64,000 nucleotides of DNA, from contig VMGC01000002.1 of assembly GCA_007376385.1 (NCBI GenBank), forward strand, positions 32,001-96,000. The letters run 5' to 3'. The DNA comes from Parcubacteria group bacterium Gr01-1014_8. GTDB lineage: Bacteria; Patescibacteriota; Minisyncoccia; Phycocordibacterales; UBA2100. Position 1 is the stretch's first letter; every line of letters begins with the position of its first letter. Position numbers and translations under genes: made by a program. The notes under the pieces are model-generated. The model was not told the origin of the DNA. It made no database searches and worked only from the letters and a program-made list of their open reading frames with translations. Positions 3,518-57,815 of the stretch are shown one piece after another.

Positions 3518-3681
3518 AGCGCGAGCTTCACTTTTAAGAACCCACGGTTCTCAACGCTCGCTCTGCTCACTGCTCTCCTCCTCGGGAAAACTACAGTTTT
3601 CCCGACCCCTTTCGAACTCGCTTTACCTTATTCAAGGCTAAGAACATAGATGGCAAGCGAGGTAGATGGTATAGTGCCTCA

Positions 3682-3752
3682 CGCGCCTGGATATATGTGT
3701 ATCCAGTCGTCGCTCGGAGAAAATGCAAAAGCGAGCTTCCGCATTTTGCTCC
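3682..3752 (+). repeat. Two adjacent hairpins (CCTGGATA..TATCCAG; AAAATGC..GCATTTT with CGAGC in the loop) related to the hairpin/CCGAGC-box repeat family
   Basis: Inverted repeats seen in sequence, directly upstream of tRNA-Phe. Confidence 0.4.
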
Positions 3753-3758
3753 TTGTTA

Positions 3759-3832
3759 GCCTGGATAGCTCAGGTAGTCAGAGCATTCCCCTGAAGAGGG
3801 AAGGGTGGTCAGTGCAAGTCTGACTCCAGGCA
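3759..3832 (+). tRNA. tRNA-Phe (anticodon GAA), with a non-canonical T-loop TGCAAGT
   Basis: Acceptor GCCTGGA/TCCAGGC, D-stem GCTC/GAGC, anticodon arm TTCCC-CTGAAGA-GGGAA, T-stem GTCAG/CTGAC; G at position 55 is unusual. Confidence 0.6.
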
Positions 3833-23747: not shown

Positions 23748-23854
23748 TATGACCCCGTAACGAAATGTGCCTTAGGCTTGAACATCATATGAAAACAAAT
23801 CACCAAAACGGACAAATCAACAAAGTCGAACTTTATCTGTCGAGGATAGCAAGC

Positions 23855-24075
23855 GAAATGCGAAAGCGCAGGTTTCGCATTTCCGAGCGACACAGACAGC
23901 AAAGGTTTAAAACCCCGCGGCTTGCCTGCCTGTGCGATGCACGCAGACAGGCCGCGGAATTTGGGAAACGAGCAGCGCTCGTTTTCCAGAGTCCAGGGCT
24001 TGCCCTGGGGGTTGAAACCTTTCATCCGACCACGCCGCGGCAGCCGGCAGGCGTCTGCCGCAAAGGCACATTTTC
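23855..24075 (+). repeat. Structured intergenic element, copy B of the hairpin/CCGAGC-box family (GAAATGCGAAA..TTTCGCATTTC hairpin, CCGAGCGACACAGACAGCAAAGGTTTAAAACCCCGCGGCTTGCC core, internal palindromes, then GGGTTGAAACCTTTCAT)
   Basis: 50-nt core differs from copy C at 31361-31412 by one mismatch; lies between pyrF and pyrE. Confidence 0.6.
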
Positions 24076-24084
24076 TAACGGAGT

Positions 24085-24726
24085 ATGACGAGCACGATGA
24101 CAGAAGCTGATGTACTGGATCTCTTAGAGCGTGTTGGTGCCTTCCGAAAAGGGCATTTTGTGCTTACTTCCGGAAGACACGGTGATACGTATATAAACAA
24201 AGACGCCATATATCCTTACACCCGCGAAACATCTGCGCTGTGTAGGGCGATGGCAGAAAAATTCAAAGACCTCAATATAGAGGTTGTCGTAGGTCCGGCG
24301 GTCGGTGCGGCCATTCTTTCTCAATGGGTCGCCTACCATTTGTCCGAGATGAACGGCCACGATGTACTGGGCATCTATGCGGATAAGGATGGCCAGGGCG
24401 GATTTATCTTGAAACGAGGCTTTGACAAACTGGCGGAAGGGAAACGAGTGATCGTTGTTGAAGATCTGATGACGACAGGCGGCTCGGTAAAAAAGGTCAT
24501 TGATGTCGTCCGTCAAAAAGGAGCAGAGGTCGTCGGAGTCGGGGTTGTGTGCAATCGAGGCAATGTGCTCCCCGAAGATATCGGGGATCCGCCGAAGTTG
24601 ATATCGCTTGTTGATGTGCAGCTCGATTCGTGGGAGGCAGCGGATTGCGCCTTGTGCGAGAGAAAAATACCCGTAAATCCAGACATCGGTCATGGAAGAG
24701 AATTTCTAGCTACGCATGGAATATAA
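24085..24726 (+). CDS. pyrE: Orotate phosphoribosyltransferase
   Basis: FVLTSGRHGDTYINKD and the PRPP-binding VIVVEDLMTTGGS. Confidence 0.85.
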   Translation: MTSTMTEADVLDLLERVGAFRKGHFVLTSGRHGDTYINKDAIYPYTRETSALCRAMAEKFKDLNIEVVVGPAVGAAILSQWVAYHLSEMNGHDVLGIYADKDGQGGFILKRGFDKLAEGKRVIVVEDLMTTGGSVKKVIDVVRQKGAEVVGVGVVCNRGNVLPEDIGDPPKLISLVDVQLDSWEAADCALCERKIPVNPDIGHGREFLATHGI

Positions 24727-25792
24727 AGTGCTAAGGCGGCGTACATGCGCCACATGTGCAAGTCTCGCTTTTTTATTATTACCTGTTGCCGCCGCAGCGC
24801 ACGAAGTATACGTCCTGACGCCTGAAGAGATCACGGCAGCGATGGCAGGGGAGCGCTCCTCTCACGTAGCGACCATCGCAGAACACCTCGGTCAATTCAT
24901 GTTCTGGGGTCTTGTTACGTCCATCGTTGTGACCACCGTATTTTTCATGTCCATTTCGCATTGGCTTGAGAATCTCAGCGCGCCATTCTTCCGACGGATC
25001 AAAAGCTACGCGCCGTACGTGTTGCAAGTCGGGTTGGGAGTCAGCCTCCTCTGCACAGCATGGTACGGAGCATTCATGGGGCCGGAGCTGCCCTTCAACG
25101 CAATTTTTGGTTCTGTCGCGTGGCTTGCGAGGGTGATACTCGTACTGTGCGGGGCGAGCATCCTCCTTGGTTACAACGCGCGTTCGGCGGCAATAGCCGC
25201 ACTTCTTCTTTTCCTGCCGGTTGCGGCGAAACACGGAACGTACCTGCTTACATACACTGAATACATCGGCGCGCTCCTATTTGTTGCGATAGGGGGCGGT
25301 GGGTATGCAACACGCATGCCTGTGCGACGCACGCAGACAGGCGAGGCGCGCCTTGCAGCGAGGCTTGAGTCGTGGATGCGAGTGCTTCTGCAATACCGAT
25401 ACGCTATCCTTCGTATGTCATTCGGGTTTGCCGTTATGTTCGCCGCGGTCTACGCAAAAATAGTACACAACTCGCTCGCACTGGCGGTTGTTGATACATA
25501 TGATCTCACAAGCTATGCGCTATTCTCCGCCTTCGAGCCGAACTTTCTTGTTCTCGGAGCGGCACTGATAGAATTTTTGGCCGGCCTCCTCTTATTCTTA
25601 GGCATAGAGATACGACACACGGTTGTGTTTCTGGCGTTCTGGCTGACGCTCTCACTTTTATTCTTTGGCGAGGCTGTGTGGCCGCATATCATACTCTTCG
25701 CGATAGCTGGAACGCTCTTTCTCTACGGATACGACGCGTACTCGCTTGAAGGACGATTCTTCAAGAAGGGGGGCAGGGAGCCTGTTTTGTGA
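24716..25792 (+). CDS. Hypothetical polytopic membrane protein with an N-terminal signal peptide
   Basis: Roughly 8 TM helices; overlaps the pyrE stop by 11 nt. Confidence 0.5.
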   Translation: MEYKVLRRRTCATCASLAFLLLPVAAAAHEVYVLTPEEITAAMAGERSSHVATIAEHLGQFMFWGLVTSIVVTTVFFMSISHWLENLSAPFFRRIKSYAPYVLQVGLGVSLLCTAWYGAFMGPELPFNAIFGSVAWLARVILVLCGASILLGYNARSAAIAALLLFLPVAAKHGTYLLTYTEYIGALLFVAIGGGGYATRMPVRRTQTGEARLAARLESWMRVLLQYRYAILRMSFGFAVMFAAVYAKIVHNSLALAVVDTYDLTSYALFSAFEPNFLVLGAALIEFLAGLLLFLGIEIRHTVVFLAFWLTLSLLFFGEAVWPHIILFAIAGTLFLYGYDAYSLEGRFFKKGGREPVL

Positions 25793-25912
25793 TAAAGGTT
25801 CCTCATTGAACCTATGTTGACTCCTCGCTCCGAAGTGAACATGCGTACATGCCCGCTTCCCTCGCAACGCTCGTCAATGAAAGGGTCTTCTTGTCTAGAG
25901 CGAGGGAGTGAT

Positions 25913-26020
25913 ATACCCCGTGAGATATGTATAAAAAAGGCATCTTAACTAGCTGATTATTCATTTGAATTTATAGATTGTGATGAGAAATTTGGAGTGT
26001 ACCTATCTCATGGGGTATAC
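25913..26020 (+). promoter_or_regulatory. Inverted box pair ATACCCCGTGAGATA ... TATCTCATGGGGTATAC around a 76-nt spacer, about 25 nt upstream of the 26045 start
   Basis: Family member; arms pair G:U as RNA. Confidence 0.55.
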
Positions 26021-26044
26021 TTCTCACGACAGGCGCTTGTAACC

Positions 26045-26503
26045 ATGAAGTCGATAATTTCGATCGTAGCAGTGTTGCTGATGGCAGGAGTCGCGTACAT
26101 TATATGGCCGCAGTTCGCGAATGCACCGCAAATAGATGATCCTAGCGCGACAGAACGGGTCTCGGAACAGAAGAATGTACCGGTGGATGAGCAATTTGCA
26201 ACACTTATTACGTACACAGATGGGGGGTATAGCCCGCAAACGGTTTCAATAAAAAAAGGTCAGACAGTCAGGTTCGTTAATAACGCAGAACGCCAGGATA
26301 CATGGCCTGCGTCCGCCATACATCCCACCCATTCGATCTATCCGCAAAAAACGGACAGCGATTGTCTAGGGAGTTCATTCGATCCATGCCACGGATTAAA
26401 GCCGGGAGAGTTCTGGGAGTTTACGTTCAATGAAGTCGGGGAGTGGGGTTTCCATGACCACTTGCATCCGTCGAAGTTCGGGAAGATCCTCGTTACTGAA
26501 TAG
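26045..26503 (+). CDS. Secreted cupredoxin-like small protein (possible copper-binding beta-sandwich)
   Basis: Signal/anchor MKSIISIVAVLLMAGVAYI, then beta-rich region with His/Cys/His/Met-type ligand candidates (HPTHSIYP, CHGLKPGEFWEF, HDHLHP). Confidence 0.4.
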   Translation: MKSIISIVAVLLMAGVAYIIWPQFANAPQIDDPSATERVSEQKNVPVDEQFATLITYTDGGYSPQTVSIKKGQTVRFVNNAERQDTWPASAIHPTHSIYPQKTDSDCLGSSFDPCHGLKPGEFWEFTFNEVGEWGFHDHLHPSKFGKILVTE

Positions 26504-26510
26504 AGAGAGA

Positions 26511-26626
26511 TACTCGGCGGGGGTATGTGTTTTTCCGGGCACCGATCTTTCTTGGAAGAAAGATCCTCGAGTCCTCGGTCGTCACCTGCGGGGTCCCTGC
26601 GAAACACATACCCCCGTGCTCGCCGG
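26511..26626 (+). repeat. Conserved structured element downstream of a gene, copy 2 of 3 (outer stem GGGGGTATGTGTTT/AAACACATACCCCC, CCGGGCAC, inner hairpin GATCTTTCTT/AAGAAAGATC, CTGCGGGGTCCC)
   Basis: See the copies at 2067-2149 and 57700-57783; sits between convergent genes. Confidence 0.7.
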
Positions 26627-26651
26627 AAGCTAGAATGCAAAGATCGAATAC

Positions 26652-27578
26652 CTATTTTTGGGCGTGCAATGTAAGATAGATATCCTCTAGAGCTTTCACG
26701 GCGTCTCCCGCAGCTATGTTATTTTGATGGAAAAGGCCGTCGGTCGAATCGCCAGCTGCCCAAATACCTGGCGTTGAGGTGCGCTGCGTGCGGGGGTCAA
26801 CCTTAATACGCGCCCACTCGTTCAATTCCACAACTCCTTTAGCAAGATCTGTCGACGGCACCATGCCGATCTCCACGAAAATGCCAGCGGCAGGGATCTC
26901 CGATGTTTTTCCCGTTGCCGTGTTCTTAACGACAATGCTTTGCACGAACTGCCCTCCTTTTATTTCAATGGGCGCGGTATTGGTAAGCGCTTTCATATTC
27001 GGATGTTTGAGGACAGCTTCTACCGTCGAGGCATCTGCTTTCGAGAAATCTGGGCCGCGATGCAGCAGCGTGACTGATTTTGCATACGCAAGAAGCTGCG
27101 CTGCCGTCTCGAACCCAGCGTTGCCCCCGCCGACAACGATAGTATCTTGGTCTGCGAAAAGAGGTCCGTCGCATGATGCGCAATACGTGAGCCCTTTATT
27201 CTCGTACTCCTTTGCACCAGGGATCTCGAGTTGTTTTCGAAAGCCGCCTGTTGCGATGAGAATTGCCCGCGTATCGTATGCGCTTTTATTTGTTTTTACT
27301 GAAAAGCCTTTCTCGGTTTTTTCTATTTTTTCAACTCGTTCGCCGATGTGTATATCCAGGCCCTGGCTCGCATACGCCCTCAAGTGGCCTTCGAACGCCT
27401 TCGCGAGGTCTTGCCCTGTTATTTTCTCAGTGCCTATCCAGTTCTGTATCTCATTTGAATCAAAACTCTGTCCTCCTATCTTCTCTGCAACGAGAACTGT
27501 CTTGAGGCGTTTTCTCGCGGCGTATACGCCGGCAGATACTCCTGCTGGCCCGCCTCCGATTATGACTAGATCGTACAT
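26652..27578 (-). CDS. trxB: Thioredoxin-disulfide reductase
   Basis: GGGPAG FAD motif, redox-active CASCDG and the NADPH-binding GGGNAG. Confidence 0.9.
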   Translation of the reverse strand: MYDLVIIGGGPAGVSAGVYAARKRLKTVLVAEKIGGQSFDSNEIQNWIGTEKITGQDLAKAFEGHLRAYASQGLDIHIGERVEKIEKTEKGFSVKTNKSAYDTRAILIATGGFRKQLEIPGAKEYENKGLTYCASCDGPLFADQDTIVVGGGNAGFETAAQLLAYAKSVTLLHRGPDFSKADASTVEAVLKHPNMKALTNTAPIEIKGGQFVQSIVVKNTATGKTSEIPAAGIFVEIGMVPSTDLAKGVVELNEWARIKVDPRTQRTSTPGIWAAGDSTDGLFHQNNIAAGDAVKALEDIYLTLHAQK

Positions 27579-27637
27579 AGTAGGTCAAAGAATAACATGG
27601 CCGTTTGTAGTCCGGCCTCGCTTCGTTCCCACGGTGC

Positions 27638-28804
27638 TTATTTTCGACGAAGGAAGGAAGGAAGTCCACCCCATGCGTCATCGTCGTCGTCAGAAGCCGG
27701 ATCGCTTGCTCGCGGAATTTCCCTTGGAGATGGCGTTTCGCTTGGCTTTTGCGTTTCCACGCTCTTTCTCTCCATTCGCAAAGGCGGCAGCTCGTCAGCC
27801 TTGCGGCCGGCGAGTCTTTGAGGACCAAAAAGCTGTCTCCCTGTTCCTTCTGGAAAGCCTGTCGCGATGACCGTGACTCGTACCTGGCCTTTCTTGAGAT
27901 TGTCGTCCGTAACAGCGCCAAAAATAACCTTTGCCTCCGGGTCGATGGCTTCTGTTATGACATTGGCTGCATCCTGGATCTCCAACATGCCGAGATCCTC
28001 GCCGCCTGCGATGGAGAAGAGGACGCCCTTCGCACCTGTTATAGAAACTTCGAGGAGGGGAGAGTTTATTGCGGCACGAGCAGCGGACTCTGCACGCTTC
28101 TCACCCATAGCCGTTCCGATGCCCATAAGCGCCGAGCCCGCATTTTGCATGATGGTGCGCACGTCCGCGAAGTCTACGTTTATGATACCCGTTGTTGTAA
28201 TGAGGTCGGAAATACCCTCGACCGCCTGTTTTAAGATATCGTCACACATCGCGAAGGCGTTCTTGATGCCAGTATCTCTCGAAACAATAGAGAGAAGTTT
28301 TTCGTTCGGTATGATGATGATGGCGTCAACTGCCTTCCGGAGCTCCGAGATGCCTTGCTCTGCAAGCCTCATTCTCTGCGCTCCTTCAAATGCAAAGGGT
28401 TTCGTGACTACTCCAACCGTGAGGGCGCCAAGCTCGCGCGCTACTTTCGCGATGACGGGAGCCGCACCGGTCCCCGTGCCGCCGCCCATTCCACCGGTAA
28501 TAAACACCATGTCGGAACCTTTGAGGGCATCTTGAATATCTTCCTTCGTCTCTTCCGCCGCTTGTTTGCCAATATCAACATTCATGCCTGCGCCAAGTCC
28601 GCGCGTCAAACTTTTGCCGATATGGATCTTTTTCTTGGCTCTCGATTTATGGAGGTCCTGCGCGTCTGTGTTTATTGAAATGAAATCTACGCCGACGACG
28701 TGGGACGCCACCATGTGATTAACGGCGTTTCCGCCGGAGCCGCCGACGCCAACTACGCGTATCCGAGCAAATGACTCAACGTCGGGCTTGATCTGCTTGG
28801 CCAT
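27638..28804 (-). CDS. ftsZ: Cell division protein FtsZ
   Basis: GGGTGTG tubulin signature with GVGGSGGNAV; start placed at MAKQIKP, internal to ORF 27638..28840. Confidence 0.9.
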   Translation of the reverse strand: MAKQIKPDVESFARIRVVGVGGSGGNAVNHMVASHVVGVDFISINTDAQDLHKSRAKKKIHIGKSLTRGLGAGMNVDIGKQAAEETKEDIQDALKGSDMVFITGGMGGGTGTGAAPVIAKVARELGALTVGVVTKPFAFEGAQRMRLAEQGISELRKAVDAIIIIPNEKLLSIVSRDTGIKNAFAMCDDILKQAVEGISDLITTTGIINVDFADVRTIMQNAGSALMGIGTAMGEKRAESAARAAINSPLLEVSITGAKGVLFSIAGGEDLGMLEIQDAANVITEAIDPEAKVIFGAVTDDNLKKGQVRVTVIATGFPEGTGRQLFGPQRLAGRKADELPPLRMERKSVETQKPSETPSPREIPRASDPASDDDDDAWGGLPSFLRRK

Positions 28805-28988
28805 GGTGAGCCCATGATAGCAGGGTTTTACGAAAGGCAAACCCGCACGCTAATGGTGCCTTGGTTGCGAAGTGTTTTCACAATATTACCAACAAAATTG
28901 CAAGTGTGATATCAGAATATGCGCCGCGGTGACTGACGCTGGAGGGGCAACAAAAACACAAAGGCACCATTTAGTGTGCGGGCAAATC

Positions 28989-29096
28989 GTTGACCCCGTG
29001 AGATAAACATGGTGACGTTCGAGTCGAACATGTGGTTTTGTTGTGGCTCTCAAGCACCGCCTAACAATAAGGAATGGGTTATCTCACGGGGTTGAC
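28989..29096 (+). promoter_or_regulatory. Inverted box pair GTTGACCCCGTGAGATAA ... TTATCTCACGGGGTTGAC (18-nt perfect inverted repeat, 72-nt spacer) in the ftsA-ftsZ intergenic region
   Basis: Family member with extended arms. Confidence 0.55.
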
Positions 29097-29137
29097 TTTA
29101 TCTATCGTTTATTGCGGCTAGCGAGGAATCGAGGCGA

Positions 29138-29290
29138 GAGATTGCTCTCATCTCGTCCGAGCGACGACGCAACATACGGGTCGAATACCCCGCGGCTTGC
29201 CGCGGGTGAGGACGTGCGAAGCGCGTTCCTCATGGTGGGGCTTGCCCCGTGGTATGAATACCCTTTTTATTCCCTGGTGTACGAGAGGGA
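29138..29290 (+). repeat. Hairpin/CCGAGC-box family copy F plus three GC-rich hairpins (CCCGCGGCTTGCCGCGGG; GAGGACGTGCGAAGCGCGTTCCTC; GGGGCTTGCCCC)
   Basis: Shares CCCCGCGGCTTGCC with copies B and C. Confidence 0.5.
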
Positions 29291-29297
29291 GGTGAGG

Positions 29298-30470
29298 TTA
29301 GGGCAAAAGCGTCCTAAAACCAGTGCGAAGCGAGTCGATCGTGCGGGAAAGAATGTCTCCAAACGTATGCATTGGCGCGGCGGCGTCTTCCGTGTACGCC
29401 CAGCGGCACAGCCCGTAGGCGACAGCCCACGTCGCGTCCAGACTACCAAGGCGCGGGATACCTGCTGGGACGCCGATCTGCGAAGGAATGCGAAGCGTTG
29501 TGCGTGCAATATCTGTCGCTTGTGCTACACCAGAACCGCCGCCGGTAATAACGATGCCAGCGGGAAGCAGCCGGTGCCGCCCGATAGTTTTTAAGTGTGC
29601 ATTCATCAGCAGGTACATTTCTTTGAGTTGGCTGGAAACAATGCTTCCCATTTTGCGCGGAGGAATGTCGCTGCCGGTTACCGCCCCTCGTTTCATCTGC
29701 TCTGCTTCCGAAAGCGGGATTTGGAACGAAAGCGCTATCGCGTTAGTGATATCCGATGAGCCGATAGGAAACACTTTCACGGAAATAGGTACATCGTTGT
29801 CATAGACGATGATGGAAAGCGTTTCAGCTCCGATATTCGCAAGAACTACACCGGCTGTCTTTTGCGCTTTGGTAAGTGTGACAAAACTCGCGGCGAGAGG
29901 GGAAGCCATCACGCCTTCTACTTCAATGCCGGCCGATTCGACTGCGTCAATAAGATCATCATGGTGCTGCGTCAGGATAGAAATAATGAGCGTGTCTACG
30001 GAAAGTTTTGTACCCTGAAGACCGTGCGGGCGGCCGCGAACAGGGATGCCGTCTATGCGGTACTCAAGAGGTATGGTATGCAGTATTGTACGATTTATGA
30101 GCCTGGAAATTGCCTTTTTTTCACTCTCGCGCTGTGAGCGCTCGATCTCTCTCTCGGTCGCAATTCCTCCCGATGTCGTTAGCGTGACATCTCCGGTCGA
30201 GCGCATTTCTTCTAAGCTGACTCCTCCCATTGCGATGCGGGCGCTCCGTACAGGCGTTTTTGACGCTTGAGCCGCCCTACCGACTGCCTCGCGGATGCTC
30301 CGTGTTACTTCCTTAGGGTCTACAAGATATCCGTGGCGCATGCCTTTCGAAGAGGCAGAGCCGGTGCCGATGATGGTCATTGGCAGCTCGGGTGAATCCG
30401 GGGGACTCGCAATGACTGCTTTCACATGGTACGTACCGATATCAATTCCTGTATAGATAGTTCGGCGCAT
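29298..30470 (-). CDS. ftsA: Cell division protein FtsA (actin-like ATPase)
   Basis: MRRTIYTGIDIGTYHVKAVIA phosphate-1 motif, 390 aa, directly upstream of ftsZ. Confidence 0.85.
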   Translation of the reverse strand: MRRTIYTGIDIGTYHVKAVIASPPDSPELPMTIIGTGSASSKGMRHGYLVDPKEVTRSIREAVGRAAQASKTPVRSARIAMGGVSLEEMRSTGDVTLTTSGGIATEREIERSQRESEKKAISRLINRTILHTIPLEYRIDGIPVRGRPHGLQGTKLSVDTLIISILTQHHDDLIDAVESAGIEVEGVMASPLAASFVTLTKAQKTAGVVLANIGAETLSIIVYDNDVPISVKVFPIGSSDITNAIALSFQIPLSEAEQMKRGAVTGSDIPPRKMGSIVSSQLKEMYLLMNAHLKTIGRHRLLPAGIVITGGGSGVAQATDIARTTLRIPSQIGVPAGIPRLGSLDATWAVAYGLCRWAYTEDAAAPMHTFGDILSRTIDSLRTGFRTLLP

Positions 30471-30532
30471 ATGCGTAGCGCCTCATTGTAGCGCGCAATA
30501 CCTGGATTCCAAATGCAGATACGTCGTGGATA

Positions 30533-30931
30533 TTAAAATCCCGCTTTTTTCACGTACCGCTGTTCGAGATCGTCCATTTTTTTACCATGCTTAAGACCCT
30601 TGAGATGCAAACAGCCATGAACAAAGAGAAATGCGGTGTGTCTAGCGATCGAAACTCGAAGTGCGCGGGCTTCCCGCTCGGCTTTTCGCATATTCAGGAA
30701 TATCTCGCCCTCGCTCCTACTAATAGGGAATGAAAGTACGTTTGGCGAGTAGTCTTTTTTGCCTGACCGGCCAGGTCGATATTTTTTGTTTATGACGCGT
30801 GAAAGCGCGTCTCCGCAGACCACAAGGGAGAGAGAATAGTTATTTCCGAGAATTGCTCTCGCTATTTTCTCAAACGAAACGCGCGGCAGCGTGCCGCGAA
30901 TGGAGACCGTAGTATCGAACTGAAATGACAT
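30533..30931 (-). CDS. ybeY: rRNA maturation RNase YbeY
   Basis: HGCLHLKGLKHG matches the H-x3-H-L-x-G-x-x-H zinc motif. Confidence 0.8.
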   Translation of the reverse strand: MSFQFDTTVSIRGTLPRVSFEKIARAILGNNYSLSLVVCGDALSRVINKKYRPGRSGKKDYSPNVLSFPISRSEGEIFLNMRKAEREARALRVSIARHTAFLFVHGCLHLKGLKHGKKMDDLEQRYVKKAGF

Positions 30932-31267
30932 CTACCGTGCTATCGGAGTATCCTCGCCGAAACGCGCAGGTGTGGGGGAAGCAGGCGAGCTTTCTCGTGG
31001 AGCAGAGTTTTGCGGCCGGCCGCGGAAACCTCGGCGTGTCGGTGCTTCAGCAATTTTGCCTTCTTTTACGAGACGGCGGAATTCATCGCGACGTTTGATG
31101 CGCTTCAGCGCTTTTTTCTTTGCAACTGCCTTTGATGTGGTACGCACGTAGTACCTGCGTTTTCGAGCATTTTGGATGAGACCGGTGCCCTGTACGCGTC
31201 GGCTGAACTTCCGAATGACCGAGAGCGGGCTTTCGTTTCCGGCCTTATTTACTTCTGCGTTTACCAT
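30932..31267 (-). CDS. rpsU: 30S ribosomal protein bS21 with a C-terminal extension
   Basis: ESPLSVIRKFSRRVQGTGLIQNARKRRYYVRTTSK aligns to the S21 consensus (E-P-FD-ALRRFKR...G.L.E.RRREFYEKP); start at the internal MVNAEV. Confidence 0.75.
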   Translation of the reverse strand: MVNAEVNKAGNESPLSVIRKFSRRVQGTGLIQNARKRRYYVRTTSKAVAKKKALKRIKRRDEFRRLVKEGKIAEAPTRRGFRGRPQNSAPRESSPASPTPARFGEDTPIAR

Positions 31268-31340
31268 TGCGCTGGACAATAGCACGAGATACACACGTAG
31301 GCAAATAGAGGGGCCCTCTTTATTTGCGAGCGTTGCGAGA

Positions 31341-31434
31341 GAAACGCAGAAGAGCACTTTTGCATTTCCGAGCGACGCAGACAGCAAAGGTTTAAAACCC
31401 CGCGGCTTGCCCGTATGGGTTGAAACCTTTCATA
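31341..31434 (+). repeat. Hairpin/CCGAGC-box family copy C, with the same 50-nt core as copy B, directly followed by GGGTTGAAACCTTTCAT
   Basis: GCATTTCCGAGCGACGCAGACAGCAAAGGTTTAAAACCCCGCGGCTTGCC; potential stem AAAGGTTT/AAACCTTT. Confidence 0.6.
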
Positions 31435-32623
31435 CGAGAGATGTCGCCGCGATTGATTTGTAACGGCGCAGATAACCAGGAAGTTCTGTGAGTGCAACGG
31501 CTTCCTGCGAGTTCGTTGCGACCTCTCGCACGAGCACCGTTCCTTCCATTGCTTCTTTGTGCCCCATCAGTAAGAGGTGAGACACGCTTGTCTTCTTTGC
31601 GTGTTCCATTTGTTCGCCTAGGCGCTCATACATAAGGGATTGATGCACCGGAATTCCTGCGTGGCGGAGCGTTTCGAGCACAGAGAGTGCCTTGCGGCGC
31701 GCTTCCATGCCAAGGTGTGCGAAATAAAGGGATGGTGCCATGCGCACGGCAGGTTTAACGCGCGTCTTTCCTCGCAGCTCGCAAGCGATGGATACGACGA
31801 CAGCAGGAGTCTCTCGTGCGGCAAAGCGCGAGGCTAGAGGGTCATAGCGTCCGCCGCTTGCGAAAGGAATTCGCGAGCCCGTTTCTTCATCGACTGACGC
31901 CATTTCAAATAACGTATGCGCCCAAAAATCGCGGCTTCCGAGTACGCTGGGCGAGAGTTCGTATGGAACGCCGAATACTTCGAGATATTCAAGGAGGTCC
32001 CAGAATCTCTTTCGTTCATCCTCGGTCAAATATTCCATACTTTGGGGAGCGCGAGGCGTGGCGGGATGTCCTCTCTCGAAAAGCTGCGTCAGCGTGCCGA
32101 GAGGATCAGTTGCGGCTCGCGGTCGAAGTGTCGGAGAAATGCTGTCGATGTGTTTTCGAAGAAATGTTCCGATATCGCGAACAAATCGGTTCGATGAGTC
32201 TACGGAGCCGATGGAATTTATCGAAAGAACACGGCGGCTTATTCCCGCATCAGCGGCGATCGCATCAGCAACCACGATGAGGAGAGCCTCGGCCATCGCA
32301 TGCGGTGCGCCAACGATATGCAGCTCTATCGTGTGGCACGGAATGTTGGAGCGGTCACGCGCTGCATTTTTATTAAGACGCCAGATGAGGAGAACATCAT
32401 TTTGATTACGGGCGGCAGAGATGCACAATTTAGCAGACAGCATCAAAGAACGTTCGTCCCGCCTCGCAAATGACATCTCGGGCTCTCGTTTTGACGAGGG
32501 AGCTTGAAGACGAACGCGCTGCAATTTGTCGATGGGCGTGAATCCGTAATATTCAGCGATGCGGATGGCGCTTCCGAGAAATCCTGATGTGTTCGGGTGC
32601 CGTGTGTCTTTTAGACGGATCAT
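31430..32623 (-). CDS. hisS: Histidine--tRNA ligase-like class II aminoacyl-tRNA synthetase
   Basis: FASGGRYD motif-3 region and a C-terminal anticodon-binding-like domain; motif 2 is not obvious, so a HisZ-like paralog is possible. Confidence 0.6.
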   Translation of the reverse strand: MIRLKDTRHPNTSGFLGSAIRIAEYYGFTPIDKLQRVRLQAPSSKREPEMSFARRDERSLMLSAKLCISAARNQNDVLLIWRLNKNAARDRSNIPCHTIELHIVGAPHAMAEALLIVVADAIAADAGISRRVLSINSIGSVDSSNRFVRDIGTFLRKHIDSISPTLRPRAATDPLGTLTQLFERGHPATPRAPQSMEYLTEDERKRFWDLLEYLEVFGVPYELSPSVLGSRDFWAHTLFEMASVDEETGSRIPFASGGRYDPLASRFAARETPAVVVSIACELRGKTRVKPAVRMAPSLYFAHLGMEARRKALSVLETLRHAGIPVHQSLMYERLGEQMEHAKKTSVSHLLLMGHKEAMEGTVLVREVATNSQEAVALTELPGYLRRYKSIAATSLV

Positions 32624-33416: not shown

Positions 33417-33699
33417 AAAGTGACTTCAGGCGGGTACATCGCGCGCATTCTACTACTTAACAGTAATTGACACCAAGCGGGAGGGGTGTTGTATGTGGAA
33501 AACAATATATTTTTTCTCGCACGGATATTTTTTTGCTAAAAAAGTTCGCTCGGTATTCCTCTCGCTGAACCCGAGCGCATATTTCCGGCGATATGTGCCC
33601 TTATGCTTCAACGCGCAACTCCTCACTTCATTCGGAGACCCAGGCTTGCGCGTTTCCAGAGATTCAGCGAGAGGAATACCCGCTTGAATGAAAAATATT

Positions 33700-33761
33700 T
33701 ATTGGCGAGCGTTGCGAGTGACGCGAAAATGTACTCATTTTCATGTCCGAGCCGGGGAGCC
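33700..33761 (+). repeat. Hairpin/CCGAGC-box family copy D (GCGAGCGTTGCGAG, GAAAATG-N4-CATTTTC, ATGTCCGAGCCGGGGAGCC)
   Basis: Family member between lepB and pth. Confidence 0.5.
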
Positions 33762-33940
33762 AAAACAGGGTCGAGTGCCCTTTATCTGCTATGATGTTTC
33801 GTTATGACCCGGTAGTAGAATTTCGGCTTGTCTTGTCTAAATCGAATAACACAATTAATCTATATATTCAAAGATGACCCTATGACGTTTTTACGACCAC
33901 GACCTGCGCGTCGCGCCAGCCGAAATTCCACTAACCGGGT

Positions 33941-34534
33941 ATGACATGGGTGATCGTTGGCCTCGGAAATCCAGGAGAGGAGTATGAGCATACTCGCCAC
34001 AACACCGGCAGAATGGCTGTCCAGCACTTTGTGCGCTCAAAAAAGATAGGTGAGTGGAAAGAAGATGCAAAAGCGAAGTCGCTTGTCGCGCGAGGCATGG
34101 TTGAACGCTCGCTCGCCGCGTTCGTGTTGCCTGAAACGTTCATGAACAAGTCGGGAGGCGCGCTCACGAAATTCGTAAAGAGCATGAAAGCAGCAGAAAA
34201 TCTCGTTGTGGTCTACGATGAGCTTGATCTGCCTCTTGGAGCGATGAAAATTTCGTATGACCGTGGTAGCGGTGGACACAAAGGCATTGAATCCATCATG
34301 CGTGCAGTCAAAACGAAAAAATTCTGGCGCATTCGCATCGGTGTTTCGCAGTCTACGGCTGGAGGAGAGATAAAAAAACCTCACGGCGGCAAAGCGGTGA
34401 ACGATTTTATACTTGATATATTCAAACCGCACGAACACGCGGTTCTAAAGACCGTATTCAAGCGCGTCGAGAACGCACTCGAAAGTATCATCGTCGACGG
34501 ACCTGAGAGAGCGATGAATCAGTTCAATTCATAA
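33941..34534 (+). CDS. pth: Peptidyl-tRNA hydrolase
   Basis: MTWVIVGLGNPGEEYEHTRHNTG canonical N-terminus. Confidence 0.9.
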   Translation: MTWVIVGLGNPGEEYEHTRHNTGRMAVQHFVRSKKIGEWKEDAKAKSLVARGMVERSLAAFVLPETFMNKSGGALTKFVKSMKAAENLVVVYDELDLPLGAMKISYDRGSGGHKGIESIMRAVKTKKFWRIRIGVSQSTAGGEIKKPHGGKAVNDFILDIFKPHEHAVLKTVFKRVENALESIIVDGPERAMNQFNS

Positions 34535-34992: not shown

Positions 34993-35034
34993 ACGACTTA
35001 AGCAACAGGTTTCAGAGTCATCCGAATGTCCGAG

Positions 35035-35760
35035 GTTCGACCTCGGACATGTTGTGCTTAATCGGTATTAAGCTTGTATGCAAGCCACTCATTTATGTGC
35101 TTTTTGAATTCGGAAGGTGTTGAGAAATATTCCGGCATCGCTTTAGCGTCAATCAGCTTATTTTCAGGACGTTCCACTCCCGAAAAATCGAGATAGCTTG
35201 AATAAGGATACCTTTCTAGAGATTTTAAATTCGCGAGAGCAGACAAAGTCTCCTTTTCAAACGTCTTCGTAAGTGCGACTGGATTCAGATGCACGTACGC
35301 TATGAGGTATTTGAGATACCGATCATCTTTTGCATGAACGGCTTTGAATTTTCCTTGAAGGAGTGCTCCGTTGCGTTCATGTCGTTTGTTGAAATACATC
35401 GTATAGCCTGTTATGACTTTCTGCATGAATTTACTTATCCCGCCCACGCCAATTTCTCGGAGTATCAGGTGAAAATGATTTGGCATGAGGCAATACGCCG
35501 CGACGTCCACAAGTGGAGAGCCACGCGGCAGTTCCAAAGCTTCACGCAGTGAGTATCTACTTAGCCGTTCATCGAGCCGTTCTTCCTGGTTGCAGGAATA
35601 AAGGAGGGTTAGGAACCGCTCATAGTCACCGCGTGAGCTAAAAATCGAGCGCTTCTCGGTTCCCCGATTGTAGACATGATATATCTCATCGCTTGCGAAC
35701 TCTATTTGCCGTGTCACCCGGTGATTATAAAACAAATGTCCGAGGTCGAACCTCGGACAT
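35035..35760. mobile_element. Y1 transposase (IS200/RayT-type) gene flanked by inverted 25-nt palindromic REP-like hairpins ATGTCCGAGGTTCGACCTCGGACAT (35035-35059) and ATGTCCGAGGTCGAACCTCGGACAT (35736-35760)
   Basis: The two hairpins are exact reverse complements of each other and bracket the transposase ORF. Confidence 0.75.
35058..35735 (-). CDS. IS200/IS605-like or REP-associated tyrosine (Y1, HuH) transposase
   Basis: YHVYNRG, YCLMPNHFHLIL (HuH), KYLIAYVHLNPV (catalytic Tyr region). Confidence 0.75.
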   Translation of the reverse strand: MFYNHRVTRQIEFASDEIYHVYNRGTEKRSIFSSRGDYERFLTLLYSCNQEERLDERLSRYSLREALELPRGSPLVDVAAYCLMPNHFHLILREIGVGGISKFMQKVITGYTMYFNKRHERNGALLQGKFKAVHAKDDRYLKYLIAYVHLNPVALTKTFEKETLSALANLKSLERYPYSSYLDFSGVERPENKLIDAKAMPEYFSTPSEFKKHINEWLAYKLNTD

Positions 35761-35767
35761 TGTGGAT

Positions 35768-35852
35768 AAAATAGTTTTCAAGCGCGTCGAGCATGCGCTT
35801 GAGACAATTATCCTCGATGGCGGAATGAAAGCGATGAATCAGTTCAACTAGA
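35768..35852 (+). pseudogene. Diverged duplicate of the pth 3-prime end (encodes ...KIVFKRVEHALETIILDGGMKAMNQFN*)
   Basis: About 75 percent nucleotide identity to 34450-34534 (pth ...TVFKRVENALESIIVDGPERAMNQFNS*). Confidence 0.6.
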
Positions 35853-42743: not shown

Positions 42744-44042
42744 ATGACCAAACTTTCATTTTTTCAGATAGTCGTACTCTCATCCTTCGGTGCTCTCGCG
42801 ATCGCGGGCGTAATGATATTTGCGTTCGTGGTCGGCGGCTCCGGAGGCGAGGGCATAGGAGAAGTGAAAATTTGGGGCACGCTGGACGCTGGCGCATTTG
42901 CAACGATACTCCGTCAGCTTGCGGAAGAGGACACTCGCATGAAAGCTGTAACGTATACCCAGAAAGATCAATCAACCTTCGATCGGGATGTGACCAATGC
43001 GCTCGCGTCCGGTGCGGGGCCTGACCTGTTCGTTCTCCGCAGTGATTTCGCAGAAAAGGAGGCAGCGAAGGTGTCGGCAATACCGTATGCGCTATTTTCG
43101 GAAGAACAATTTCAAAATACGTTCATCGAAGCGGCGAACGTATACATGGGTCCGGAAGGAGTGCGCGCCGTTCCGCTTGTTGTGGACCCGCTCGTACTCT
43201 ACTGGAATCGCGACATGCTGGCCTCATCGGGCTTTGCGAAACCGCCCGTGTTTTGGGACGAGTTGTTCGACATGGCGACAAAAATGACCAAAAAAGACGA
43301 TACGAATTCCATCATAAAGAGTACCATCGCGCTCGGTGAACATCAGAACGTGGATCATGCGAAAGAGATACTCTCGCTTCTCATCATGCAAGCTCAAGGC
43401 CGCATCACGCAAAGAGATGGTACGGGGAAATTGCAGACGGCGCTTGTGGCGCGCGCAGGAGATGTACAGCAGCCGACAGAATCGGCGCTCCGGTACTACA
43501 CTGAATTTGCGAACCCTATCAAAGCGCACTACACATGGAATCGCGCACTTCGAGAGAGCCGTTCAGCGTTCGCATCGGGAGATCTCGCACTTTATATAGG
43601 CCTCGCAAGCGAGGAGCCGTTGGTACGCCGCATCAATCCGAATTTGAACTTCGCTATTGCGCCAGTGCCGCAGATACGGGGCGGTGCTCGGAGCTTGAAT
43701 GTGGGACACGTATACGCATTTGCCGTACCAAAAGCGGCCAAGAATCTGCAAGGCGCTCTCACGGTTGCCTATACTCTTGCATCAATGGATACGTCAAAAC
43801 TATTCTCTAAGGCTCTTGGCATGCCTTCTGCAAGGAGAGATGTTCTTGCGGAGCCTGCGACGGGCAATGATGATCTTTTCAACAAGCAAGCCATCCTTGC
43901 GAGAGCGTGGGTAGACCCGGACCCGGAAAAAACTGATGTTATATTTAGAGACATGATACAGAGTGTCACCAGCGGCTCTGCGCGTCTCGGCGAAGCGATA
44001 CAGAGGGCGGATAAGACGATGAGCGACCTTCTCAGCATATGA
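42744..44042 (+). CDS. Membrane-anchored extracellular solute-binding protein (ABC substrate-binding, family 1-like)
   Basis: N-terminal TM helix then a periplasmic binding fold of about 400 aa. Confidence 0.55.
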   Translation: MTKLSFFQIVVLSSFGALAIAGVMIFAFVVGGSGGEGIGEVKIWGTLDAGAFATILRQLAEEDTRMKAVTYTQKDQSTFDRDVTNALASGAGPDLFVLRSDFAEKEAAKVSAIPYALFSEEQFQNTFIEAANVYMGPEGVRAVPLVVDPLVLYWNRDMLASSGFAKPPVFWDELFDMATKMTKKDDTNSIIKSTIALGEHQNVDHAKEILSLLIMQAQGRITQRDGTGKLQTALVARAGDVQQPTESALRYYTEFANPIKAHYTWNRALRESRSAFASGDLALYIGLASEEPLVRRINPNLNFAIAPVPQIRGGARSLNVGHVYAFAVPKAAKNLQGALTVAYTLASMDTSKLFSKALGMPSARRDVLAEPATGNDDLFNKQAILARAWVDPDPEKTDVIFRDMIQSVTSGSARLGEAIQRADKTMSDLLSI

Positions 44043-44144
44043 CCCCATGAGAGAAATACTTTCGATATACCTATGAACATGATTGAACAGATCTACATGT
44101 GGGAGACAACAAAACATTCAAGCAGTCTCTCTCACGGGGTATGA
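44043..44144 (+). promoter_or_regulatory. Variant box pair TATGACCCCATGAGAGAAAT ... TCTCTCACGGGGTATG. The 5-prime box overlaps the TGA stop of 42744..44042 and the 3-prime box abuts the ATG of 44141..44488
   Basis: Same arrangement as between infB and rbfA (50709-50814). Confidence 0.55.
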
Positions 44145-44489: not shown

Positions 44490-44795
44490 ATGACTACATT
44501 TAGACGCATTGGATATCTGATTCTCATCCTCGGCGCGCCGCTCGTCGTCGCGGCAGCGCCTCGCACCTATAGGGAACTTGTCGAATACCTCATTAAAATA
44601 ATGAATTACACGATAGGTACGTTGATAGTTCTTGGGCTGGTGACGTATTTTTACGGCGTTGCGCACAATATAATAAGATCTAAAGAAGGCGATTCAGGCC
44701 AGCAGAGGAGTTTTATTTTGATGGGTGTCGTCGTGATATTCGTCATGGTGTCGGTGTGGGGAATACTTCGTCTCCTTAGAACGACGTTCTTCTAG
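44490..44795 (+). CDS. Pilin-like paralog 2
   Basis: MTTFRRIGYLILILGAPLVVAAAP signal, then helices ending IFVMVSVWGILRLL; ATG 2 nt after the upstream TAG. Confidence 0.55.
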   Translation: MTTFRRIGYLILILGAPLVVAAAPRTYRELVEYLIKIMNYTIGTLIVLGLVTYFYGVAHNIIRSKEGDSGQQRSFILMGVVVIFVMVSVWGILRLLRTTFF

Positions 44796-45380: not shown

Positions 45381-45427
45381 TATCAGGGGGATACAATAAG
45401 ACTACTTACTGGCGACGTAAGGCGAGA

Positions 45428-45470
45428 GAAACGACAGTGTAACTCACTTTCGTTTCCGAGCCGAGGAGCC
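45428..45470 (+). repeat. Hairpin/CCGAGC-box family copy E (GAAACGA-N15-TCGTTTC then CGAGCCGAGGAGCC)
   Basis: Family member between R1 and R2. Confidence 0.5.
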
Positions 45471-45524
45471 AGCAAAAATATTTTTTTACCAAGTCAACTT
45501 ATTGATATTTACTATGAGCGCACG

Positions 45525-45680: not shown

Positions 45681-46011
45681 GGGCACTTTTCTTTTGCCTG
45701 CACTCGTCTCTGCCCAGACTCTCCTGAACACGCTCGCGCTCGTCAATACGTTCCTCAACGCGCTCATCGGTCTTTTCATTACCCTTGCCATCGTCGCGTT
45801 CTTCTGGGGACTCATCAAGTACTTGGTCAATATGGGTTCCGAGAATGCGAAAGAAGGCATTCAGATAATGCTCTGGGGCATCATCGCAATTTTCGTCATG
45901 GTCTCCATTTGGGGAATCATCCGGTTGCTCCAAGCTACGTTCCGTGTCACATCAACTGACCCGGTCATTCCAAAAGGTATTCAGATCAACACTGGAGGGG
46001 GAAACTTTTAA
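45664..46011 (+). CDS. Pilin-like paralog 4
   Basis: MWVLIAGTFLLPALVSA|QT signal, helices ...FFWGLIKY...IFVMVSIWGIIRLL. Confidence 0.55.
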   Translation: MWVLIAGTFLLPALVSAQTLLNTLALVNTFLNALIGLFITLAIVAFFWGLIKYLVNMGSENAKEGIQIMLWGIIAIFVMVSIWGIIRLLQATFRVTSTDPVIPKGIQINTGGGNF

Positions 46012-46074: not shown

Positions 46075-46377
46075 ATGGAAGCTGGAATGATGGTGCTGCA
46101 GAGGTTCAAGGAATATATCCTTGACCCGACTATTTATCTTATCCTGACAGCAGGACTCCTTTTGTTTATTTACGGTCTTGTGCTCTTTATCTACAAGATG
46201 CGAGAGGGCAGCGACTATAAGGAGGGCCTGTCGCACATGCTCTGGGGCATAATCGGCATGTTTATTATGGTATCCGTGTACGGCATTATCGCGCTCATCA
46301 TAAACACGATCGGCGCTGACCCGACTCAACCTGATCTAAGCAGGATACCTGAAGCAAATCCCGGATTCTTTAAGTAA
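46075..46377 (+). CDS. Pilin-like paralog 5 (no cleavable signal; two TM helices)
   Basis: LFIYGLVLFIYKMREG...MLWGIIGMFIMVSVYGII, related to paralogs 2 and 4. Confidence 0.5.
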   Translation: MEAGMMVLQRFKEYILDPTIYLILTAGLLLFIYGLVLFIYKMREGSDYKEGLSHMLWGIIGMFIMVSVYGIIALIINTIGADPTQPDLSRIPEANPGFFK

Positions 46378-50710: not shown

Positions 50711-50814
50711 ACCCCGTGAGAGAAACTATCTAAAGCTACTAAGCTTGGTCGCATGCTGTTGGAAAGGATTGATTTCATATATATTTTAAAGAATATTCTC
50801 TCATGGGGTCATAC
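50709..50814 (-). promoter_or_regulatory. Variant box pair bridging the infB stop and the rbfA start (on the minus strand: TGACCCCATGAGAGAATAT ... TTTCTCTCACGGGGT-ATG)
   Basis: One arm overlaps the infB TGA, the other abuts the rbfA ATG; 14-bp potential RNA stem. Confidence 0.55.
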
Positions 50815-52351: not shown

Positions 52352-52455
52352 ATACCCCATGAGATAAAAAACTCATAGCCCAGTGATATAGGGTATTTGT
52401 CAAATCAAAATTCGTCGCGCAAAAAGTGTCAAGCGATCTATCTCACGGGGTATAC
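52352..52455 (+). promoter_or_regulatory. Inverted box pair ATACCCCATGAGATA ... TATCTCACGGGGTATAC (72-nt spacer) between divergent infB and the cysteine desulfurase gene
   Basis: Family member. Confidence 0.55.
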
Positions 52456-53860: not shown

Positions 53861-54069
53861 CTACCCCGTGAGATAAAGTCATTCGGTGTATGTGGAGGTG
53901 ATGTTGCTTGGTGACTAATATCGAACGCGGCTCATAACTTTTCGCCATATCTCATGGGGTCTACCCCGTGAGATAACTGTTCGTCTTTTGTTTCGAATTG
54001 TAGTTCATGTATCCATAGTACAATGTCGGTAATGAGACATCTATACACCTCCTATCTCATGGGGTATAT
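53861..54069 (+). promoter_or_regulatory. Two tandem inverted box pairs: CTACCCCGTGAGATAA ... ATATCTCATGGGGT|CTACCCCGTGAGATAAC ... TATCTCATGGGGTATAT, ending 13 nt before the 54083 start
   Basis: The central 29-nt near-perfect palindrome is formed by abutting boxes. Confidence 0.55.
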
Positions 54070-57699: not shown

Positions 57700-57783
57700 G
57701 TGCTTCCTCCGGGCACGGATTTTTCTTACTAGAAAAATCCTCAAAATCCTCGGTCGTCACCTGCGGGGTCCCCCCAGAAGCAC
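57700..57783 (+). repeat. Conserved structured element downstream of a gene, copy 3 of 3 (outer stem GTGCTTC/GAAGCAC, CCGGGCAC, inner hairpin GGATTTTTCTT/AAGAAAAATCC, CTGCGGGGTCCC)
   Basis: See the copies at 2067-2149 and 26511-26626; sits between convergent clpB and 57816..58667. Confidence 0.7.
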
Positions 57784-57815
57784 AACCTCACTCGCTGGAG
57801 ACGGGGGAGCGTTCG

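Follow-up and report, generated by a model that had tools for sequence, protein, structure and literature searches.

A two-domain structured intergenic repeat in Kaiserbacteria-type bacteria of the Candidate Phyla Radiation, with likenesses to REP, MITE and IS200/IS605-type elements

Short interspersed structured repeats are known from bacteria in several forms. Repetitive extragenic palindromes (REPs), often arranged in inverted pairs as bacterial interspersed mosaic elements (BIME, REPIN), are extragenic, multi-copy and non-coding, their strand folds as an imperfect palindrome, and a GTAG head is typical of them (PMC2817692). Bacterial MITEs (miniature transposable elements with inverted repeats), such as Correia/NEMIS, RUP, BOX and the Coxiella QMITEs, are also small, multi-copy and free of open reading frames (ORFs), occupy A/T-rich intergenic sites, differ in copy number between relatives and occur as internal-deletion variants, and their predicted transcripts fold stably (PMC10969869). 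The palindrome-associated elements of the IS200/IS605 insertion sequences have no inverted ends, carry hairpins near both ends, present one specific folded strand and sit directly 3' of a fixed motif. Apart from the frequent inverted pairs, each of these features recurs, the GTAG head in the main subtype only, in the element described here, a previously uncatalogued structured repeat of about 90–190 nt, of which we find eight copies in a 64-kb stretch of Parcubacteria group bacterium Gr01-1014_8 (contig VMGC01000002.1, positions 32,001–96,000; hereafter the window, to which all unprefixed coordinates refer). We read it, with a probability of roughly one half, as a REP- or MITE-like non-coding and non-autonomous element of Kaiserbacteria-type bacteria of the Candidate Phyla Radiation (CPR), which would be mobilised in trans by way of a folded single strand.

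The first-pass annotation of the window had listed seven loci with a short hairpin followed at once by a CCGAGC-type box, and had read them as a family of structured non-coding elements particular to the lineage, whether small RNAs or repeats of REP type. All seven were found in place, and they are genuine copies of the repeat. A covariance model of its 5' domain, based on five copies of the window and four of other genomes and run over the whole window with filters off, gives six of the seven E-values from 4e-24 to 9e-5, far beyond chance, and adds one copy that the earlier list did not hold. The model matches are as follows.

45403–45476, plus strand: copy c7, 81.7 bits
14264–14336, plus strand: copy c2, 80.5 bits
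33696–33767, plus strand: copy c6, 76.6 bits
31317–31388, plus strand: copy C, 72.8 bits
23830–23903, plus strand: copy B, 61.3 bits, E = 2.5e-17
25813–25883, minus strand: the added eighth copy, 39.4 bits, E = 4.5e-10
3700–3769, minus strand: copy A, 23.4 bits, E = 9e-5
29108–29174, plus strand: copy c4, 11.4 bits, E = 0.84, marginal

The copies grade from intact (about 80 bits) to decayed (A, and c4 at 11 bits). Despite the marginal score c4 is a family member, because its positional counterpart in a relative (L016:8326–8392) is also matched (E = 0.025) and because about 90 nt of its 3' domain can be closely aligned with the one in the canonical copy L089. As a stand-alone motif, CCGAGC occurs in the window at chance level (41 matches, 39.6 expected), and a loose hairpin-plus-box descriptor produced an excess of false matches (8 per shuffle); a tighter descriptor worked.

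From the box-anchored alignment of the copies, it is clear that conservation reaches about 45 nt upstream of the box. The hairpin and box are real, but they form only the middle of a longer unit, which begins just after TTTA, consists of a 62-nt 5' domain and a 3' domain, and finishes in UUUAY. Each copy is closed by a covarying 5-bp helix, P1, whose sequence varies by copy with its complementarity kept. The interior of P1 opens with a purine-rich internal loop; a GC helix comes next, then a 5'-GCGAG/5'-CGAGC block, and the variable hairpin P3 ends the series. The block, which contains the box noticed earlier, is made up of two G-C pairs around a tandem G.A/A.G. Several subtypes of the internal loop coexist, and its two strands change together: GACGUAGRG goes with CGAGGA (type 1), GAGGAUAG with GACRCA and UAGCGAGG with GAGCGC. 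By its pattern, the type-1 loop (5'-GA-C-G-UA-G / 5'-C-GA-G-GA) fits two sheared G.A pairs in tandem together with a C-G pair and an S-turn with a bulged G; its 5'-CGUAG/5'-CGAG part, next to tandem G.A pairs, is a putative S-turn of the sarcin–ricin type, a motif whose signature is 5'-(N)GUA(N)/5'-(N)GA(N) between Watson–Crick pairs.

The 3' domain lies directly after P1 and comprises a short A-rich linker, a second structure and the UUUAY end. In the short form this structure is a simple hairpin, for example AAACCGGUGCACCGGUUUAC. In the full form it is a four-way junction with a closing stem GGUUC...GAACC or a variant of it, inside which lie an AAUAC(C) joiner; hairpin Ha, whose loop is often G(CUUG)C; hairpin Hb, in which the tandem-G.A block recurs as CGAGC-GRA-GCGAG; a second AAUAC(C) joiner; and hairpin Hc. 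The ends of the 3' domain, for which automatic delimitation was unreliable, were set by eye and with the help of related pairs. In the window the full form is found in B and c4. The parts of the eight copies are given below.

23837–23899, plus strand: copy B, 5' domain, preceded by TTTAT at 23832–23836; P1 CUGUC/GACAG; GC-AAG...CGA-GC with G.A/A.G pairs
23855–23883, plus strand: copy B, P3, an 11-bp hairpin
23900–24025, plus strand: copy B, 3' domain, four-way junction, homologous to the 3' domains of canonical copies; closing stem AAAGGUUUAAAACCC/GGGUUGAAACCUUU; ends UUUCAU
23915–23957, 23963–23987 and 23993–24008, plus strand: copy B, hairpins Ha, Hb and Hc (the last with a CUUG loop), from the fold and the inverted repeats I1, I2, I4 and I6
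31323–31388, plus strand: copy C, 5' domain; P1 UUUGC/GCAAA; one C.A mismatch in P3
31385–31433, plus strand: copy C, truncated 3' domain, closing stem only; its last bases provide the TGA stop of a hisS-like gene (ORF 31430–32623, minus strand)
14267–14365, plus strand: copy c2, complete short form, filling the 98-nt spacer of two minus-strand genes; 5' domain 14270–14332, P1 CUGAC/GUUAG, then hairpin and UUUAC
25792–25877, minus strand: eighth copy; 5' domain 25817–25877, P1 UUGAC/GUCAA
25792–25815, minus strand: eighth copy, 3' hairpin GGUUC-AAUGAG-GAACC and UUUAU
29112–29172, plus strand: copy c4, divergent 5' domain (predicted fold) in the ftsA–ftsZ spacer; P1 UUGCG/CGCAA
29177–29270, plus strand: copy c4, full 3' domain; closing stem GGGU..UACC/GGUA..UACCC; three hairpins, two of them G(CUUG)C and one GCGAAGC; ends UUUUUAU
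33702–33785, plus strand: copy c6; 5' domain 33702–33763, P1 UUGGC/GCCAA
33764–33785, plus strand: copy c6, 3' hairpin GGG-UCGAGUG-CCC and UUUAU
45409–45489, plus strand: copy c7; 5' domain 45409–45472, P1 CUGGC/GCCAG
45473–45489, plus strand: copy c7, 3' part, an A/U palindrome and UUUAC
3687–3764, minus strand: copy A, decayed; 12-bp hairpin, CCGAGCGAC box and P1 CCAG/CUGG kept, 5' box lost
3687–3706, minus strand: hairpin following copy A

The first-pass annotation had also proposed that B and C share a core of about 50 nt and have a downstream block that can pair back. The shared core measures 54 nt at 96% identity (23873–23926 versus 31358–31411), and GGGTTGAAACCTTTCAT does pair back to AAAGGTTT. 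A segment of about 80 nt, regarded there as extra in B, is present and palindromic, but it represents three hairpins of the four-way junction and the ancestral state, because C has lost 77 nt lying between two GGCTTGCC repeats, much as L092 and L124, in comparison with L090, have lost the part between the two AAUACC repeats. At copy A, the 5' strand of P1 (3759–3769) overlaps the first bases of a tRNA-Phe gene on the opposite strand. Beside this copy, at 3540–3650 on the minus strand, lie decayed-looking pieces (GUAAAGCGAG..GGGAAAAC-UGUA-GUUUUCCC-GAGGAGGAG, and also GAGCGUUGAGAAC..GUUCUU) that are likely family fragments, with a model score that is not significant.

The fold was examined in a larger metagenome set, obtained by an exact scan for the two type-1 boxes. 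At least 120 contigs carry the repeat, and the first 80 loci, analysed with the model, hold 87 full-length copies with an element G+C of 28–59%. Box conservation in this set is circular, because exact boxes were the selection criterion, while the variation in P1 and P3 is not. The metagenome alignment, itself fitted to the model, has canonical pairs in 97.1% of its 1335 cells and shows changes on both sides in 11 of 15 pairs (198 cells). Covariation scores 0.419; shuffles score 0.139, with none of 500 reaching the observed value, and slid registers give at most 0.06. Folding of single sequences returns the same two domains (minimum-free-energy fold, z = −5.4), and Ha and Hc covary as well, with compensatory changes in 9 of 12 predicted pairs. 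The alternative that the likeness was only local low complexity is not borne out, as the stems vary between copies yet remain complementary. Because G.U pairs exceed A.C mismatches by 40 to 10 and the sense strand is the more stable in 84 of 85 copies, it is one strand that, on these patterns, folds, be it as RNA or as single-stranded DNA. The loops do not decide between the two, since G(CUUG)C tetraloops are typical of RNA but GCGAAGC mini-hairpins are noted for their stability in DNA. Short CGAG-type boxes conserved in intergenic DNA might also suggest double-stranded binding sites for a regulator (operators or nucleoid sites); the compensatory changes, the G.U/A.C asymmetry and the strand-specific stability indicate a folded single strand instead, and the neighbouring genes share no common set, making such sites very improbable.

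A structure of this kind could also belong to expressed RNAs with a function for the host, either small RNAs or modules of untranslated regions, the copies being paralogous genes or modules. The rod with its putative S-turn and tandem G.A pairs, together with the four-way junction, would then bind a conserved CPR protein, for example one of ribosomal or RNase type. We hold this to be possible but doubtful. In its favour are the strong covariation in P1, P3, Ha and Hc, the excess of G.U over A.C and the purine-rich non-Watson–Crick loops, the RNA-typical tetraloops, the conservation of the loops over a wide G+C range, the survival of the fold in copies of one genome that have come to differ by compensatory change, and a 3' domain that finishes like a terminator in a stem and U-tract. 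One copy also lies directly behind an RNase P RNA gene (L110:1623–2072, beginning 24 nt downstream on the same strand). Against it, the box conservation is in part a product of the scan, which required the boxes, and the distribution and turnover of the copies, described next, argue otherwise.

The relatives compared were 80 FtsZ-centred loci of about 20 kb each, labelled Kaiserbacteria, Paceibacterota or Parcubacteria; the FtsZ of the window is 86% identical to that of one Candidatus Kaiserbacteria metagenome-assembled genome. By the covariance model, 16 of the 80 have full-length copies and 64 have none in their approximately 20 kb; window and loci together give 26 full-length matches. Further copies thus occur in the window, in relatives and in many related metagenomic genomes, so that the family is wider than one genome, and the proposal of a lineage-specific structured family holds in its structure and in its restriction to Kaiserbacteria/Paceibacteria-type CPR genomes. 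Such great variation in copy number speaks against a host RNA, as do tandem arrays of the 5' domain alone: in L083:2051–2288, three tandem 5' domains with a period of 81 nt precede a single 3' domain. The exact-box scan of viral contigs gave no match, and phage and plasmid collections showed no similarity to the repeat. The Rfam search that had been suggested finds no family for it: Rfam 15 at gathering thresholds returned only tRNA and RNase P for the window and 20 loci, and in E-value mode copy B and one canonical copy gave nothing below E = 0.78, the matches being unrelated hairpins. The searchable literature holds nothing on such repeats in CPR. Interspersed structured repeats are a known kind; this family, its two-domain architecture with non-Watson–Crick modules and its occurrence in CPR are new to Rfam and to that literature.

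In the closest relative among the 80 loci (L002), which is syntenic with the window over 13.6–41 kb, the spacers corresponding to those of B, c4 and c6 lack the repeat, and a second relative (L003) lacks B. The spacers compare as follows.

pyrF–pyrE spacer: 13 nt in L002, about 20 nt in L003, 337 nt in the window (copy B)
ftsA–ftsZ spacer: 80 nt in L002, 457 nt in the window (copy c4)
lepB–pth spacer: about 120–150 nt in L002, 524 nt in the window (copy c6)
23754–24083, plus strand: 330-bp insertion carrying copy B in the pyrF–pyrE spacer, from the comparison with L002 and L003

This insertion is flanked by a direct repeat, TATGAC (23748–23753 and 24084–24089), and bounded by a 22-nt imperfect inverted repeat (23752–23773 / 24063–24084) that is matched in no fetched locus of other genomes. 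The true start of the pyrE-like gene next to it is probably ATG 24097 and not 24085. A probable side effect of the repeat is the placing of strong structures with a terminator-like 3' end between genes, here parting the once-adjacent pyrF and pyrE. One metagenome has identical 5' domains at three separate loci (L085, L090 and L106). Taken together, the lack of conserved synteny, with most relatives having no copies at corresponding sites, the identical copies at different loci and the decayed and internally deleted copies all weigh against paralogous host RNA genes. The repeat also fragments short-read assemblies, since the only public contig with the exact pyrE-like protein, a 7.4-kb Logan contig of the same genome (L001, window about 23944–31347), ends inside B and near C.

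The ends of the unit are sharp. Upstream of it there is no conservation, and the information content rises abruptly at T-T-A (frequencies of 0.80, 0.94 and 0.94), the Y that comes next being where P1 starts; related copies in differing contexts have the same ends (a break at TTTAY on the left and at UUUAY on the right). A conserved promoter upstream of the unit was not found, which again disfavours a host RNA, and a scan for sigma-70 promoters gave promoter-like sites at chance level and none inside the elements, the best −35/−10-like strings scoring only 8/12. The copies of the metagenome set lie in co-directional spacers (20 on the same strand as the genes and 13 on the opposite one), divergent spacers (10) and convergent spacers (8); an early impression of antisense or upstream placement vanished in this unbiased set. 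The neighbours of the repeat, in both orientations, include pyrE, ftsZ, rpsU, hisS, lepB, pth, an endonuclease III-like gene, a glyoxalase and a pilin-like gene, and presumably nusG and rpsL, which were identified by eye. No constant position or orientation upstream of a coherent gene set was seen, as a riboswitch or leader would require, and no protein family recurs among 429 flanking ORFs within 1.5 kb of the copies.

About 17% of the copies adjoin a separate terminator-like hairpin whose T-tract supplies the TTTA, compared with 9% of random TTTAY sites. This, the G+C-rich 3' stem followed by UUUAY, and the resemblance of the short forms to bidirectional terminators of the A-tract/hairpin/T-tract type could suggest that the units are composite intrinsic terminators or insulators between genes. 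We consider this improbable, as 16 copies sit in divergent spacers, where no terminator is needed, and others in both orientations in co-directional ones, U-tracts are missing from the conserved 5' rod and, where present, run to only 3–4 nt, and relatives do without the element at the same spacers.

Of the two options in the first-pass annotation, we therefore prefer the REP-like repeat. A mobile repeat is suggested because the copies are scattered independently of orientation, have sharp ends, expanded in a particular lineage, are missing from syntenic sites, include identical copies and have given rise to deletion derivatives. By analogy, the repeat stands closer to REP/RAYT (REP-associated tyrosine transposase) systems and to IS200/IS605 than to classical MITEs, in that it folds on a specific strand, has no inverted ends, carries a GUAG head and follows a left flank like TTAC/TTAT. 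That flank resembles the target sites of IS608-type elements. Like a REP with its GTAG head (PMC2817692), type-1 copies read GAC-GUAG-RGCGAG and then a palindrome. Both kinds of repeat comprise several sequence subtypes per genome and have no terminal inverted repeats. The likeness of the head holds for the main subtype only, because types 2 and 3 (B, C and c4) carry GAUAG, GCGUUG or UAGCG in place of GUAG. In contrast to REPs of about 20–40 nt, the unit is three to eight times longer, its 5' domain alone being about 62 nt, and it has the closing helix P1, loops conserved on both strands and a second domain. Most of its copies are single, only L116 having an inverted pair, and while a REP is specific to its species, the loops here stay conserved over many genera. 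Compared with MITEs, which are simple long hairpins formed from inverted ends, its fold is asymmetric and strand-specific and contains non-Watson–Crick modules, and no parent insertion sequence is known for it.

If the unit does move, the following route may be envisaged. One strand of the unit, as RNA or single-stranded DNA, folds into a rod domain (P1, the internal loop GACGUAGRG/CGAGGA, the GC helix with a second tandem G.A, and the variable hairpin) and a hairpin or four-way-junction domain. An enzyme acting in trans, encoded elsewhere in the genome, would recognise this folded strand and copy the unit into new T-rich intergenic sites, of which some 17% would be the T-tracts of terminators; our guess is a single-strand transposase of the HUH/Y1 type, of the RAYT or IS200/IS605 kind. 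Once inserted, a copy would either decay or, through recombination between short repeats within it, shed part of its interior.

Several observations weigh against this preferred reading of a mobile, REP- or MITE-like element. Neither the window nor the surroundings of any copy showed a gene for a transposase, a RAYT or a reverse transcriptase, nor was tnpA or tnpB seen nearby; a RAYT gene flanked by two REPs was likewise not seen in the fetched loci, in which the ORFs between opposed pairs were not scanned (those in L143 and L150 are not transposase-like by eye). Terminal inverted repeats are absent, the left end YURGCGACGUAG... and the right end ...GAACCUUUAU not being inverted copies of each other. 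TTTAY stands at both ends, but the right copy (UUUAY) pairs within the closing stem, there is no likeness beyond 4–5 nt, and no clear target-site duplication is seen. The left and right hairpins are unlike, P3 (GAAAUG...CAUUUC) being unrelated to the G+C-rich 3' hairpins with their CUUG loops, whereas the ends of IS200/IS605 elements are alike and are bound by one TnpA. No strong lagging-strand bias is seen either, the sense strand lying on the G-rich strand at 48 of 81 loci (48:33, p = 0.12) and in 6 of 8 window copies. The internal loops are nearly invariant across elements of 28–59% G+C, and the differences between the two copies of one contig (L146), like those among the window copies, are compensatory; this would fit selection for an RNA function at the individual loci too, and speaks against pure decay. 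Both L137 and L088 retain the fold at sites that look orthologous, their flanks being about 83% identical. Empty sites in very close relatives were not found among the fetched loci, which hold only distant relatives or identical duplicates.

The mobile-element and host-RNA readings are not exclusive, for a mobile repeat could have been domesticated. A more speculative suggestion, which we regard as unlikely, is that the repeat is a new structured class and not decaying junk: either a two-domain RNA (a rod with S-turn and tandem G.A pairs, and a four-way junction) that is expressed from many loci and bound by a conserved CPR protein, or the substrate of an undescribed mobilisation system that would copy units folded on one strand, and lacking terminal inverted repeats, to positions beside TTTA sites and the T-tracts of terminators. 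CPR bacteria (Patescibacteria) have tiny genomes with short spacers, but in this lineage a structured repeat that can account for most of several spacers is tolerated or used. With its unusually clean covariation and recognisable RNA-type modules, the repeat offers a ready test case for the spread of repeats in CPR genomes and for their possible domestication as RNA. Its practical effects include broken short-read assemblies, inflated numbers of spurious ORFs and altered operon structure, as at pyrF–pyrE.

Other identities were judged by eye and rejected. A sigma-54 promoter, a K-turn, a hammerhead or hairpin ribozyme, a group II domain 5, a T-box, a 5S rRNA-like or tRNA-like origin, an integron attC site, an IS110 bridge RNA and a TnpB/IscB guide RNA all failed, on the grounds of spacing, missing core features, missing neighbour genes or the lack of an Rfam match.

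The window itself is core chromosome of a CPR bacterium, with a G+C content of 49.5%, 11 dispersed tRNA genes and housekeeping gene content (a leuS-type synthetase, gyrA, clpB, infB, ftsA, ftsZ, pyrF, a pyrE-like gene, rpsU, ybeY, lepB, pth, tsaD, alr and S1). It also encodes a type IV secretion pilin family typical of CPR. A second repeat family is present in eight copies of about 100 nt each.

9987–10084, 25915–26017, 28993–29093 and 44042–44141: copies of the second family
50711–50810, 52354–52452, 53863–53961 and 53963–54066: its remaining copies

These have terminal inverted repeats of 13–16 bp, TACCCCRTGAGAKAAA ... TWTCTCAYGGGGTA, with TA flanks and about 70 nt of non-conserved sequence inside. 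Several stop just upstream of a start codon (10095, 54083), and one adjoins copy c4; the family looks like a classical MITE or a paired operator. Upstream of c6, the lepB–pth spacer contains a perfect 18-bp inverted repeat, GGTATTCCTCTCGCTGAA / TTCAGCGAGAGGAATACC, around about 95 nt.

About 33552–33570 and about 33665–33683: arms of the 18-bp inverted repeat

A repeat of about 65 nt (...CCTGCGGGGTCCCT...) occurs in three copies of 71–76% identity at 2071–2162, 26530–26598 and 57734–57796. The hairpin ATGTCCGAGGT-TCGA-CCTCGGACAT occurs twice, 710 nt apart (35025–35073 and 35735–35783), and is adjoined by a 74-nt direct repeat (34454–34527 and 35774–35847), the two together bracketing a small minus-strand ORF. 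Finally, three paralogous coding segments of 67–74% identity (44715–44768, 45868–45921 and 46237–46290) lie in small, pilin-like membrane ORFs around c7, one of which weakly matches T4SS_pilin (PF18895).

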